A stretch of DNA of 62,490 nucleotides. It comes from Balamuthia mandrillaris (lineage: Eukaryota). Where the stretch lies: contig JAVKOQ020000051.1 of NCBI GenBank assembly GCA_031835245.2, forward strand, positions 186,001 to 248,490. The letters run 5' to 3'. The translations under genes were made by a program, and so were the position numbers. Below are positions 7,208 through 62,490 of the stretch, piece after piece; position 1 is the first letter of the stretch, and every line of letters begins with the position of its first letter. A model generated the notes under the pieces. That model saw nothing but the letters and a program-made list of their open reading frames with translations, ran no database searches and had not been told where the DNA came from.

Positions 7208-8437
7208 ATGGGCACCAAAGAGCACCAACAAACCGAACACGAAGAGATAGAGGAGAACCAAGTAGCGGGGGCAGAGTGGGAGCAACTGCCAGATGAGCTG
7301 CTCTCTTTGGTTTTGTCCGCGGTGGATCCTTTGTTCGTGGGCATCGCGGCAAGGACCTGTCGCGCTTGGTACCGCTGCGCTCCGCCTGCTCTTCGGGACC
7401 GGCTGTACCAAGCGGCAGTGTGCAGCTCTAAGCCACTGTTGCAATGGGCGGTGCAAGGGGAGGCCAAGACTGGCCTCTGCCCTGTGAACGAGGAACTCGC
7501 CGCCATGATCGCCAGACAGGGCCACTTGGAGCTGCTGAAGTGGGCGAGAGAGGGGCTGAACTGTCCTTGGGACGAGCACACTTGCAGCTTGGCCGCAGGG
7601 CAAGGTCACTTGCAACTGTTGCAGTGGGCCAGAGCCAACGGTTGTGCTTGGGGGGAGTGGACCTGCGTCGAAGCCGCCAAGAATGGCCAGGTGGAGGTGC
7701 TGAAATGGGCGAGAGAGAACGGATGTCCTTGGGACAGGCGTGTTTGCTGCTTTGCTGCCCAACGCGGGCAGTTGGAAGCACTAAAGTGGGCCAGGACCAA
7801 CGGGTGTCCTTGGGATCAACGAGCCTGCACCTGGGCCGCTGGGAACGGCCATTTGGAAGTGCTGCAATGGGCGAGAGAGAACGGATGCCCTTGGAGCGGG
7901 GATACTTGTTGTGAAGCTGCCTTAGCGGGGCGTTTGGAGGTGCTGCAATGGGCGAGAGAGAATGGATGCCCTTGGGATGAAAGGACTTGCTCCTCTGCTG
8001 CCTGGAACGGCCATTTGGAAGTGTTGCAATGGGCTCACGCCCACGGATGTCGTTGGACGGCAAGCACTTGCATGAATGCTGCTGCGAACGGCCATTTGGA
8101 GATGCTGAAATGGCTCACGGCCAATGGGTGCCCATGGAGCACATTCATTTGCCACATAGCTGCCCGGAGAGGGCAGTTGGAAGTGCTGAAATGGGCCAGA
8201 GAGAACGGCCGTCCCTGGGACGAAGAAACGTGTTCCATGGCTGCTGGGAACGGTCATTTGGAGGTGCTGAAATGGGCCAGAGAGCATGGTTGTCCTTGGG
8301 ACGAAAGAACTTGCACAGCGGCTGCAGAGAACGGCCATGTGGAAGTGCTGAAATGGGCCAGAGAGAACAAATGCCCTTGGACCACCCGCGCTCGTAAGTA
8401 TGGCGCAGAGCATGGATACGTAGAAGAGGAGAGCTAA
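7208..8437 (+). CDS. F-box-like plus ankyrin-repeat protein (27-aa CPW-type repeats), intronless
   Basis: WEQLPDELLSLVLS...CRAW is F-box-like. It is followed by about 11 repeats of GHLEVLKWARENGCPWDExTCxxAA. Confidence 0.9.
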   Translation: MGTKEHQQTEHEEIEENQVAGAEWEQLPDELLSLVLSAVDPLFVGIAARTCRAWYRCAPPALRDRLYQAAVCSSKPLLQWAVQGEAKTGLCPVNEELAAMIARQGHLELLKWAREGLNCPWDEHTCSLAAGQGHLQLLQWARANGCAWGEWTCVEAAKNGQVEVLKWARENGCPWDRRVCCFAAQRGQLEALKWARTNGCPWDQRACTWAAGNGHLEVLQWARENGCPWSGDTCCEAALAGRLEVLQWARENGCPWDERTCSSAAWNGHLEVLQWAHAHGCRWTASTCMNAAANGHLEMLKWLTANGCPWSTFICHIAARRGQLEVLKWARENGRPWDEETCSMAAGNGHLEVLKWAREHGCPWDERTCTAAAENGHVEVLKWARENKCPWTTRARKYGAEHGYVEEES

Positions 8438-57107: not shown

Positions 57108-57342
57108 TGTTGGTAAAATCACCAACACTTATCTCAAGACTCCTCATGTTGGATCCGTCCCGGACCCTCAGCTCTCCTTTCTTTTGTATCCCCCATCCTT
57201 CCTTTCTCCCTTTTCCCCTTTCTCTCGGTGTACTTTGAAGCAACGTCGGAGATTCACTCTCGTTGTCCTTCCTCTATTCTCTTGAATACACTCCTTGTCT
57301 CGTCACCGACTCTTTCCTTCCTAAGGTTGGATTTAACCAACA
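57108..57342 (+). mobile_element. Putative 5' LTR (235 bp) of an LTR retrotransposon
   Basis: Begins TGTTGGTAAAATC and ends GATTTAACCAACA (TG...CA, 12/13 inverted match). Composition shifts from AT-rich to GC-richer at 57108. Lies directly upstream of a gag-like ORF. Confidence 0.7.
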
Positions 57343-57395
57343 TTTTTTTTTGACTTACATAAGTGATTCAAATCCCCTCTTGCGCTACGCACATC

Positions 57396-58152
57396 ATGGA
57401 AGCCACAGCCGCTCTCGACACCCTCCGTGAACAGCTTCGCAAGGCACAACAGGAGTACCTCCACATGCTCCAACAATCTTTTCAACTTGAGCTCGACATC
57501 CCCAGCTGTCCCGAGACTGAACGCGTCGCCAAAGAAGAAGAACAGCGCAAGTTAGACGAAGTCGCAGAACACACTAGAAAGGCCATGGAACGGTTACAAC
57601 AACGTATAGACAGCTTTGCTATTTTCCTCGCATCCACCTCGGCCACACTAGGCAATTCTTCCACATGCAACACTTCCGCTGCCGCTGTTTCTCCTCCCTC
57701 GCCCGTTCCACAGATCTCTCCCATACAGTCACCTCGTTCGAGTTCACCCTCTCCCGTTGACGTTTCCGTCAACAACACAACTGCTTCCAACAGCACACAC
57801 GTTGCCTCTGTCCCAGAAACACAGAACAACACAACTACTCCTTCCCTTCCTACTCAGAAGAAAATGCCTCGCCTTCCCCCCGGACTACCTAAGTTCGACG
57901 TCAGCAAGCGCCAGGACCCCGCTCTTCACACCATGGAACTGGAGTATCACCTCAACGCCTACAACTACCCTGAGGATAGATGGACGCAAGCCCTCATCAC
58001 CACCCTTGTTGGAGACGGACGTCTTTGGGCCATTAGCGCTCTACGAGACCAACCATGGAACGTCGCCCGAGACCTCTTCCATCGGCACTACCACCTTCCA
58101 GACATCGAGGCCACAACGATTGAGGCCGTCACGTCGTTTCGACAGAAGCCTG
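57396..58152 (+). pseudogene. gag: Ty3/Gypsy-like gag, 3'-truncated by telomeric repeats
   Basis: N-terminal coiled coil and Pro/Ser linker, then the capsid-like LPKFD...YPEDRW...LVGDGRLW...W...LF..HY...FRQKP. The frame then runs into (TTAGGG)3. No pol is present. Confidence 0.75.
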
Positions 58153-58170
58153 TTAGGGTTAGGGTTAGGG
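58153..58170 (+). repeat. Internal telomeric tract (TTAGGG)3
   Basis: Three perfect repeats in the same orientation as the terminal array. Confidence 0.95.
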
Positions 58171-58442
58171 GCGAGTACTCTTAAACCTAAGCTAGCCTCT
58201 CCTTGTAACTTAAAGAAATATCATAAAAAACTAAGTCTAAAATAGATACACTTATATTGTGATGAAATTTTTTTTAATCTTTTCTAAAGTTGTAAATATC
58301 AATAAAAAGGCAGTTTTGTTAAAATATTTTTATAATACTAAGAAAAAAATGTTGAAGATAAAGAAATAACAACAACATAAAAAAAAACTTAATATCATAA
58401 AAACATTTCAACATGAAAATAGAAAATAAAAAACAAACAAAA

Positions 58443-61149
58443 TCAAATATTAAAATGTTGACAAATAGCTTTTTCACTACCATACTTAAGCATTAAGTTT
58501 CTCCATTTGTCTTTGCAGTCCACATTTGTCCTGAGTTGCTGAGGTAAAGTTGATGCAATCTCAACCCAAGTAGCTTTTTTATGAAGACGCAAATGAATCA
58601 ACTCTTTTGTTTCTTCATCACTCCAAGGTTGATGTTGACGATGATTGGAAGTTTTGATGCGAGTTCTTGGAGTAGAAGTTTGAAGTTGAAAGGGTCCATT
58701 TTTTCATTTTTTGTAAGGTACTTGCTTCAAAGGTGAATGGTTTTGTAGATGAGGTAATGCAGGTTCTATGAATGCTTCCAAAAGCTCATCTAAAAGTTGA
58801 AAGTTGCCTGCCAACAAGCTTGCAATATGTCTTCTTCCAACAATCGTTTTGATGTGATTAAGTGGTGGTGGTGGTGATGATGCATCTTGAGAGTTATTTC
58901 TTTGCTTGAATGCTTCCATTTCCTGGCTCATCTCTTCTTCAACTTCATCTTCATGATTGTCTATCCATGCATGTAAGCACTTTTGCCATAAAGACTTGCA
59001 TAATTTAGCATGATCTGACTTGGATAAATCAGTTCTGCTTTGGAATCTAAAATAAATAAAAATTAATGAATAAAATGAGTGAGTTAAGCACAAGAAAAAT
59101 AAACAAAATAAACAAAATAATAATAATAATAAAGTAAAAAATACACCAACCTTTCCATAACTTTGTCATAAAAGGCTTCATAATTAGTTTGTAAAGACCA
59201 CTTTGAAGTCAAAGGTTCTTTCAAATTATGAAATACTTCTTTGGTAACTAAAGTTGGATCCATCAAACTGGTTGAAGAGGCTTCACCTAATTGATTGTAT
59301 GTGCAAAAGAAAATAAAAAGTAAGATAAGTTTTTCTTTCTTTCTCAAATTAAAAAAAAAAGAAAAAATAAAATACCTGAGGAAGAAACTAATCTATTAAC
59401 AACCATGGATTTGATAGCAGTGCTTTTCACATAACGTTGTTGAGAACGTCCATAAGGCTGCCAACCAGCAATAAAAGCTGTAGATTCCAGTACTGCATTT
59501 CTTTGTTGACTGTCATTCAAACCCTGCTTGATCAAAGCAGTGCAAATGAAACCAGCTCTCAAAGAATAGAAAGTAAAGAGGCCTGGAGGATAGTTGGCTT
59601 GGCTAGCACATTTCTTCAGTCTGGCATTCAAAGCATCAGGGCTCAGTCCCCACAAAGAAGTAGCTTGTTGTTGAGGAGAAAGATTCCAAGCAGAAAACTC
59701 TTCTAAGCATAAAGAATGAGTTTCTTGAAGATGAAGATTAAGCCAGTAGATGAAGTCAGCTGTGGGGTTGATGTGAGGAGGAGGATGAAGATAGCCTTCC
59801 AAAGTAATCATGTGATTCCAATCTCCTGGTTTTCCTTTGGTAACTTGATGAAGAAGTGAAAAGAAGCAGAGACTGTGAGGATCAGAGGGATCTTGGATGA
59901 TGAAGTTCTGAAAATGTCCAAGAAGAATGTTGGAAGCTGTGATGGCTCTAGCTCCAGTGCTTACACTATGCAACCAACAACTGGCATCTCTTGCTTTTTT
60001 GCGTTTACCATCCGGAATCATCGTTATGATTTGAATCACATCATCCCTCAAACAAGCATCTCTCATTCTTCCTGATCTTGTACAAGATGGAGCACGTTGT
60101 TTGCACTTCTTTGCTGCCAAATTCACAGTATCTTGTATCTTTTGTGGTACTTGCTCTCCTCCTGTTTCTTCCATATGAATATGATACAAACTTGCCACAA
60201 TAACATCTTTTGCTGAAGTCAAAGCATATCCAACAGTCATCACCAACCATTCCACAAATGCTCCAAGATGATGTTTATCTGCATCCAAAGGAAAAGGTTC
60301 AAGTTTCCACTTATCACAAAATGCTGTCCAAATCAATCTGGCCCAGGCATGTTTTCGCAAAGTTGAATCACTCCATCATGAAGAAGTTGCACTCAAGTAT
60401 TCCCATCTTTCTAACATTAAAGAAGGAAGCATACGAATAGCTCGAGACACTCTTGCTGATGGGGTAGTGGTTGGTAATGCTTGTGATGATTGTTGTTGTG
60501 GTTGTACTTTCTCTTTTCTTTTTGTTTTTGTTGGTTCATTTTCTGCTTCACTTTCTGAAGAAGAAGAAGAAGAAGAAGAAGAACAATCTACCAAATCAAT
60601 GAAAAGAGTAGAAGTTGTTGTTGGAGTTGTTGATGTTGTAGTCAAGTCTATTAAAGAAGAAGAAAAAGAAGAAGAAGAAGAAGAAGAAAAATAAAAATCA
60701 TCATTATTGGTCTCTCTTTCCTTCTCTTTTTCTTCTTCATCTGATGTTGCAAAAAAACTATCATTATCTTCTTCAAAATTAAAAGCATCATTGTCATCAT
60801 AAAAAATGGGAATGAATGAAGAAGAAGAAGAAGAAGAAGAAGAAGAAGAAGAAAAAAAAGAAGAAGATGATGATGATGATGATTTCAAGGTGGAAGTTGA
60901 AGTTGTAGAAGAAGTAGATGCAGATGATATTATCATTTTTTGTTTTTGTTGAGTGTGAAAGGATCTTTGAAGCAAGATAAAAATGAATAAGAAATAATAA
61001 TTCAAAAAAAATTACTTTTAAAATAAATAAACAAACCTTTTACATTTTTTGCTACAAAAAAGTTGATTTGATTGAGGACAAGGAATCAAATTCAAACAAA
61101 GTGAACAATGTACTTTTTTTGAAGTTGAAGGTAGCATTGTTGTTGACAT
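58443..61149 (-). pseudogene. Zinc finger - tyrosine recombinase - telobox Myb gene; exons 61149-61037, 60964-59376, 59286-59151, 59046-58443; two in-frame TGA
   Basis: All three GT-AG junctions keep frame (2442 nt = 813 codons + stop). Motifs: CSLC...FCSKKC; STGAR, VTKGK, YSLRAG, AGW, QRY; WSDEE...W...RTNVDCKDKWRNL. Premature TGA at 60378-60376 and 58706-58704. Confidence 0.85.
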
Positions 61150-61820
61150 AAAATATTGGTAGAAAATAAAAAAAAAATTCACTTAAAAAGACTTTGTAAA
61201 AGAAAAAACACAATTAAAAAAATAAGAGGGGAAAAACAAGTGGAAAAAGTGTGAACTGTTTGTGAAAAAATAAAAAAATAAACTTTAATTGTAAAAAAAA
61301 TGTTTGAGGAGTTAAATTTTGGATTTTTGTAGACATGTCGACAGAAAATAACCGAAAAACCATAATAGAAAGGCGCTATCGAAGGATGACTATTTAAAAG
61401 GGCGAAAAAAACATTATATTTTTCGAAAGCTCCAGGGAAAAGAAGGGGAGATTAACCTAGGTCGTTCAATTGATTGATTGGCTTACGTTGTTACATATGA
61501 ACCAATAATTGAAAGCATTTAGTACTGGTGAAAGAACAATGCTGGAAATTGTTGGGACAGGGGCACTGCCTTGCCATATCTTTCCGTTAAGACAAAATGG
61601 CTGCATGGGCCCACCCGCTTCTCATTCCTGCATTCACTTGAAGAAGGAAATATCCGTTGAAATATTGCATTGAGATTGGGTTCCTTTGGAAAGGTTTGTT
61701 TGGTATAGAGAAGAGTAGTCACTTAGAAGGACAACCTGACTCTGGAGTGATTTTTTTTTGAAATTTTTTTTAAATATAGCAATTTTATCCAAGTTAAAAA
61801 AAAAAACAAATGATTAAAAG

Positions 61821-62187
61821 CTAAGTCTACAACTAAACAAGCTATGTTTATGAAAATTTACTTATCTATGTTCCAGGCTATGGAAAATTGAATACAATTG
61901 GTTTAAGCCTTAGAAAACATTATGTACTTGAGAAATTAATTATTTAAGTCAAAAACAAAATAATTCACTCTCACAATAAATTTAAAAAACAGAACTAAAA
62001 AATACTTTCCAGATATAGTCTTAAAATAACACAAACAAGGTGTTGCATTGCTGAAATGCTTTATTTACTGCTTAAAAAAAAAAAAGAAAGGTGAAAAACT
62101 TAATGTTTTTTGATATTTTTATTTTAAAAATAGAATATTTGACAAGAACATAAAGTTTACAATTAAATAAGCTATGTTTATGAAAAT
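61821..62187 (+). repeat. 37-bp degenerate direct repeat (61821-61857 and 62151-62187)
   Basis: CTAAGTCTACAACTAAACAAGCTATGTTTATGAAAAT versus TAAAGTTTACAATTAAATAAGCTATGTTTATGAAAAT; the last 19 bp are identical. Confidence 0.85.
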
Positions 62188-62457
62188 ATGTTGACTAAGT
62201 CTAACTTAACAAAAGAAAAGGACAAATTATCAAAAAAGAGTGTATTTCAACAGAAAGAAAGAAAGACAACAGGAAAAATACTCCATTATTGCTTTAGAGT
62301 ACATTAAGAAAAAGGAAAAAGAGAATAATGGAAGACTTGAAAGTAAGTATTTTACATAAGAAGTCTTGAAATAAGTGTTGATGATTTTATTAACATACTT
62401 CCTCTTTTAAGAAAAATAGAAAGATAAAAAAATAAAAGAAAAGAATAAGAGTATTCA

Positions 62458-62490
62458 AGGGTTAGGGTTAGGGTTAGGGTTAGGGTTAGG
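62458..62490 (+). repeat. Terminal telomeric array (TTAGGG)n, right chromosome end
   Basis: AGGG(TTAGGG)4TTAGG runs to the end of the window with the G-strand pointing outward. Confidence 0.93.

Follow-up and report, generated by a model that had tools for sequence, protein, structure and literature searches.

In a 62,490-nt stretch of a Balamuthia mandrillaris contig (JAVKOQ020000051.1; the window, by which we mean the whole stretch), we find that positions 58171–62457 are probably a broken one-gene DNA transposon, coding for a tyrosine recombinase joined to a Myb domain and lying in telomeric repeats. The Myb domain would bind the repeat, and an excised circle would integrate at GGGTT(A/G)GGG. 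Telomere targeting is well supported, and movement as a circle is likely. Balamuthia telomeres are TTAGGG, and transposons of this species await curation (10.1101/2025.02.25.640156; here and below, statements from cited papers are drawn from the parts of their text available to us).

Boundaries and inverted ends

The element body (58171–62457; 4.29 kb) lies between two AGGG motifs and has continuous multi-copy cover in X1, X4, and X6, three sets of DNA contigs (read depths are not taken as copy numbers). To its left, a proximal tract of (TTAGGG)3 occupies positions 58153–58170 of the forward strand, the last AGGG (58167–58170) being the left overlap; then come GC (58171–58172) and an 11-bp arm (58173–58183, forward strand). 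At the other end, an 11-bp arm (62446–62456, forward strand) is followed by a single A (62457) and by the right overlap AGGG (62458–62461), with which the terminal telomere (62458–62490, forward strand) begins. An X1 contig with two small indels stops at the same right base before the telomere, and a low-depth contig does likewise. The last exon of protein P0016, from a copy 88%–93% like that of the window, continues past the left end into three repeats, beyond which the sequence differs; judged from the protein, the same left junction therefore occurs in another flank.

An earlier note on this DNA had described both junctions, and its coordinates and letters all agree with the window sequence. 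The 11-mers are inverted at 10 of 11 positions, as it reported, and their outer part at 8/8. When 20,000 random 30-mers were drawn from inside the element, none matched the true left end at 10/11; among 5,000 random pairs of interior sequences, 0.14% gave a 10/11 match lying no more than 4 nt from both ends. The 11-mer alone is common enough (two matches in the window versus 1.78 expected), so the significance of the arms comes from their position at both junctions and not from rarity of the 11-mer itself.

That excision restores a perfect telomere, as also claimed, is true yet empty: In a repeat with a 6-nt period, two junctions can always be joined in phase. Because such a repeat allows in-phase joins with 0–5 nt of overlap, the AGGG overlap is nearly uninformative, and by the same reasoning it is non-diagnostic, telomerase healing using such microhomology too. 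Taken as candidate direct repeats of 4–6 bp, the two AGGG motifs are uninformative inside a periodic target, and overlaps vary between lineages. What stands of the proposed integration at AGGG is that a tyrosine-recombinase element with defined ends enters telomeric repeats.

The recombinase-Myb gene

The gene lies on the reverse strand (58443–60936) in three exons, with introns at ~59375–59287 and ~59150–59047. It is broken by premature stops at 60376–60378 and 58704–58706, and Tyr replaces the catalytic His at 59566–59568; the window copy is dead. The nearest relatives of its protein are P0001 (93%) and P0002 (51%), both of Balamuthia mandrillaris, followed by proteins of Monocercomonoides and of metagenomes at 32%–40%. 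The P0001 cluster has 17 annotated members at ~90% identity, within one species' records, and 206 representatives score below 1e-10 in the homologue search. The annotated P0001 and P0023 proteins end in a sequence that also occurs, unchanged, in the P0002 family, which hints at two Balamuthia families in tandem.

In the window copy, the recombinase domain went undetected by Pfam and PDB sequence searches. An AlphaFold model of P0001 (pLDDT 71) has Cre as its top match (E = 2e-06; TM 0.55 by target) and also matches XerH and lambda integrase, its predicted fold comprising a core-binding and a catalytic part. The catalytic set R, K, H-x-x-R, W, Y is invariant across 50 homologues, and ESM Atlas groups the domain with unnamed eukaryotic tyrosine recombinases.

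The C-terminal Myb domain (58494–58631, reverse strand; Pfam PF00249, E = 4e-08) has counterparts in 30 of the 64 homologues scanned. Its helix 3, RTNVDCKDKWRN (58497–58532), is near the telobox consensus VDLKDKWRT (PMC3767043): The motif VDCKDKWRN is identical to that consensus at seven of nine positions, and the protein has a single Myb. From its sequence, the domain is predicted to bind double-stranded telomeric DNA, which we consider likely. A telobox Myb, not mentioned in the earlier note, is also the likely explanation of the telomere targeting.

Relatives in telomeric repeats

A metagenome scan gave 25 loci, 19 of them with a strong match, and a genome scan added one, for a total of 20 (L001–L019 and L026). 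The counts leave out L020–L025, L027, and L028, which are short bacterial matches (E ~1e-4 to 1e-3). A tract of at least two telomeric hexamers is present at 15 of the 20 strong loci. The tracts are TTAGGG at L002/L003, L005, and L016 (three lineages) and TTGGGG at L006–L015 and L018; none was seen at six of the weak bacterial matches (L020–L025). Together with the window, the loci make up about eight lineages: Tracts are present in five, the junction of L001 is telomere-like, and L004 and L026 have neither. Three telomeric repeats, as at the left end in the window, are likewise found at L003, L005, and L016; short-read contigs span short tracts only, and tract lengths may be biased. Two scans of viral contigs gave no match, and phages gave no match to the element.

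The TTGGGG elements are open only under translation table 6, that of a ciliate-code host, and they form tandem arrays in which 2–8 repeats separate the units. Base-exact right ends are common to diverged units in arrays, and a 3.2-kb unit shared by L006, L007, and L008 (99.8%–99.9%) meets three different neighbors after (TTGGGG)4. Element units span 3.0–4.3 kb. Helix 3 reads RT..(M/Q/G)(V/I)(R/K)(E/D)RAR in the TTGGGG elements versus RTN(V/I)DCKD(K/R)WR in the TTAGGG elements; this change in the Myb helix suggests co-evolution with the host repeat.

We lean toward the view that these are minimal telomere-homing DNA transposons occurring across amoebozoans, a ciliate-code host, oxymonads, and other protists, in which a captured telobox would have been retuned from TTAGGG to TTGGGG and an asymmetric core would use the telomere as one half-site.

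Individual loci show further features. At L016, a 136-nt motif (61–168, 2511–2646, and 2703–2838) is repeated close to the right end and in the neighbor upstream, revealing tandem units separated by (TTAGGG)3. A tRNA gene at L005 (3599–3671) lies ~250 nt past the telomeric tract adjoining the element. At L002, a GC-richer stretch 3′ of the gene (2190–2560) has a tRNA-like B box and several hairpins (fold z −1.4), with no match in Rfam. L026, a contig in a Bacteroidetes metagenome-assembled genome, carries an intron-bearing, eukaryote-type recombinase-Myb gene and is probably a contaminant; it has one TTAGGG, followed by an AT-rich tandem repeat of 12-nt type.

Geometry of the junctions

The left-junction site in the window (58162–58180, forward strand), which is conserved in the family, consists of GGGTT from the telomere, 9 nt, and TACTC from the element. 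WAC stands exactly 9 nt past the last telomeric GGGTT in 12 of 13 left-junction rows and in five of seven lineages, the background being 2.3% per site. In every row, the telomeric part of the left junction ends in (R)GGG or GGG, a fixed phase of the hexamer. WACTC is a GGGTT-like half-site in inverted form, which suggests that the telomere contributes one half of the site.

The mechanism that we consider most likely is one in which the Myb domain would grip the host telomere repeat and steer the recombinase, which would excise the element as a circle and would cut and integrate that circle at GGGTT(A/G)GGG in telomeres. Within the core site, telomeric GGGTT would pair with the inverted WACTC of the element across 9 nt; only the first 3–4 nt of the core would be common with the target, which, unlike at loxP, does not amount to full spacer identity. 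From the left motif to the right partner arm, the distance is 9 nt in L001 and L016, 11 nt in the TTGGGG units (judged by eye), and 13 nt in the window.

The earlier note had proposed a loxP-like site in which 11-bp arms flank a 7-bp spacer, with crossover in AGGG and the joint 62461→58171; core sites of the loxP type have inverted arms of 11–13 bp around a spacer of 6–8 bp. The arms are indeed real and unlikely by chance, the predicted fold is Cre-like, and the second X1 contig stops at the same right base. However, the 11/7/11 site is specific to the window copy: The relatives share GGGTT-9 nt-WAC, with a right spacing of 9, 11, or 13 nt or no right arm, and the target holds just four of the seven spacer bases. 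The 11/7/11 site and 8-bp arms 13 nt apart share one axis, and the alternative join 62457→58171 places perfect 8-bp arms 9 nt apart, which is the family spacing. Neither joint was seen in X1, X4, X6, or the RNA run X21. We regard the loxP-like site, which would be a special case of the transposon model, as unlikely. We did not adopt a model in which both ends share one fixed spacing of 9 nt; under it, the offsets in three lineages are 0, 2, and 4 nt.

The L001 contig is circularly permuted, its two termini overlapping by 155 nt. Its junction contains three different hexamers and GAGTTGG/CCAACTC arms at the family spacing, with no telomerase-type tract. This could be the joint of a circle, or units could follow one another head to tail with no tract made by telomerase between them. 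The excised circle proposed earlier would have a counterpart in the circular head-to-tail form of this relative; no Balamuthia circle joint is among those listed (the joint tables for this check are complete, with three rows in table 5 and 11 in table 5c).

Several observations weigh against a telomere-homing transposon. The telomere follows positions 58441, 60064, 62315, and 62400 in other contigs, and broken and healed copies do occur in the family. L004, L017, L019, and L026 have no tract, L005 and L026 lack the left motif, and the L001 contig may represent a tandem array that has collapsed. Because the same junctions served both to define the WAC motif and to score it, its P-value of 1e-7 is optimistic. 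No right-end arm was found for L002, L008, or L010, and right spacing is not conserved. The helix-3 change rests on a single TTGGGG lineage. A profile of 18 Myb domains scores c-Myb repeats at least as high as TRF1/TRF2 (E = 1e-11 for TRF1/TRF2); since the profile matches both alike, telobox specificity rests on the helix-3 motif. Finally, a joint from the right end to 58167–58173 is absent from the X1, X4, and X6 contigs and the X21 reads, although contigs drop rare molecules and cannot show absence.

The truncated copies also bear on another explanation, in which the element is a passenger of the kind represented by Y′ at chromosome ends, spread by homologous recombination of the flanking tracts, its right end being a telomerase-healed break. 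Such a passenger would fit the telomere-capped truncations, the short tracts separating tandem units, and the death of the window copy. It would not explain base-exact right ends in diverged array units, a left-end site kept in five lineages, invariant catalytic residues, or inverted arms from end to end. Such recombination could account for secondary spread but not for the family, and we consider it quite improbable as the full explanation.

Transcripts and hammerhead-like motifs

A non-coding stretch of the element (61426–61749, forward strand) with paired ends and a back-joint is the only part of the element transcribed in X21, and it takes nearly all of 34 mapped reads. The joint 61749→61426 occurs in four reads with four starts. 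The ends pair as CTCCAG/CTGGAG, a TATA-like box lies near 61392 and a T-run at 61751, and the fold has a z of −1.7. It is possibly a circular non-coding RNA. Rfam has no family for this RNA, and no likeness to the relatives' non-coding DNA was detected; in the relatives' non-coding parts, Rfam gave just the tRNA in L005 and low-complexity miRNA matches. The coding exons have no X21 reads, with ~3 in 100 of the run read, which is not taken as silence. We rejected a reading of the stretch as telomerase RNA, the sole basis for which was TTAACCTA at 61452, one C short of a TTAGGG template.

A hammerhead-like motif of type I lies right after the recombinase stop codon in all TTGGGG units scanned. 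There are 16 such sites in 12 loci (L006, 1790–1858, with counterparts in L007–L015, L018, and L019), compared with no strong match in 1.57 Mb of shuffles. The motif is nearly invariant while the genes diverge to ~65%, and its Rfam scores are under threshold. A motif scan found no hammerhead in the window or in the non-TTGGGG lineages.

Both the hammerhead-like motif 3′ of the gene and the back-joined RNA of the window element would fit a route in which reverse transcription in trans copies ribozyme-cut or circular transcripts and the recombinase integrates the product, which would make the element a non-autonomous relative of DIRS or TATE. However, no reverse-transcriptase-like motif was found on the coding strand of seven loci (one FLDDI is on the opposite strand of L001), split direct repeats were not found in the window element, and the hammerhead is missing from the window and the other lineages. 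Because genomic copies keep two introns and the element has no reverse transcriptase, the DNA route is favored, and a route through RNA seems very improbable.

Flanking sequence and local history

Outside the element, a long terminal repeat (LTR)-like sequence (57108–57342) and an open reading frame that we take to be gag-like form a forward-strand feature (57108–58152) that is truncated at 58152 by the telomeric tract. The open reading frame has no Pfam match. This LTR-type element is high-copy, and its intact copies continue with other sequence past 58152 (X4, X5, and X6). The chromosome may have broken in the LTR element and been capped by a telomere, the transposon then entering three repeats from the proximal edge.

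Within the right end of the transposon lies a solo LTR (62189–62395, reverse strand) that is old and AT-drifted and belongs to one family with 57108–57342 (alignment score 137.5 versus a shuffled maximum of 76). The telomere-capped ends at 62315 and 62400 belong to X6 contigs. Elsewhere in the window, positions 7681–8384 hold 8.7 copies of a coding-like 81-nt tandem repeat, presumably of ankyrin type.

Comparison with known elements

Cryptons are one-gene elements with a tyrosine recombinase, 4- to 6-bp direct repeats, and a proposed circle (PMC3212892). The element resembles them in having one gene, a tyrosine recombinase as sole enzyme, no reverse transcriptase, possible short direct repeats, and a proposed circle, and it shares with CryptonF a C-terminal DNA-binding domain (PMC3212892). 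It differs in that this domain is a Myb/telobox rather than GCR1_C or DUF3504, neither of which was found by Pfam in any of 64 homologues, and in its telomere-repeat target and tandem arrays; the available part of the Crypton text mentions neither of these, nor Myb (PMC3212892).

TATE of Leishmania braziliensis is a retrotransposon with Gag-like, tyrosine recombinase, and reverse transcriptase/RNase H open reading frames and split direct repeats (PMC6681497). It likewise has a tyrosine recombinase and, in tandem clusters, occupies a single position within the telomeric hexamer, GGG^TTA (PMC6681497), whereas the present element has one gene, no reverse transcriptase, and a Myb. We found no reverse transcriptase/RNase H open reading frame and no split or inverted terminal repeats of DIRS/TATE type.

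Nimavirus integrases, from crustacean viruses of 280–400 kb, have a TAACC target and C2H2 and SAM-like domains (PMC10871703). There, too, a tyrosine recombinase inserts into telomere repeats, with concatemers or episomes across the tract (PMC10871703), but the present element is 3–4 kb and has no viral genes. Starships, which are fungal, have a DUF3435 captain and 70–200 kb of cargo; they share with the element a eukaryotic tyrosine recombinase, short target motifs, and multicopy safe-haven targets such as 5S rDNA (PMC9156397). The Starship Pfam family PF11917 was found in none of the 64 homologues, and the 3.0- to 4.3-kb units carry no large cargo. Cre/loxP has the closest solved fold and inverted arms around a short core; here the target is a non-palindromic repeat, spacer identity is 3–4 nt, and a Myb is added.

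In the literature searched, the scope of which stopped short of Repbase, subscription journals, and supplements (including the Crypton list of PMC3212892), no description of a telomere transposon with a recombinase and Myb was found; the available parts of PMC8867601, PMC13368176, and PMC8767320 hold nothing on such elements. The element would work like a Crypton with the target of TATE or of nimavirus integrases, and is a variant of the tyrosine-recombinase DNA transposon with telomere targeting.

In the parts of the literature that we found, telomere-specific mobile elements are retrotransposons (TATE) or giant viruses (nimaviruses). If our reading is true, a DNA transposon of 3–4 kb combining a telomere-protein domain with a Cre-like enzyme would be a new and simple route to the telomeric safe haven, and the family would be a natural experiment in how a Myb helix distinguishes TTAGGG from TTGGGG. 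It would also offer a eukaryotic tyrosine recombinase amenable to plasmid tests of its circle and target, and possibly a single-protein integrase for TTAGGG repeats. For Balamuthia itself, the element would account for part of the uncurated repeat content and of the turnover of the subtelomeres.

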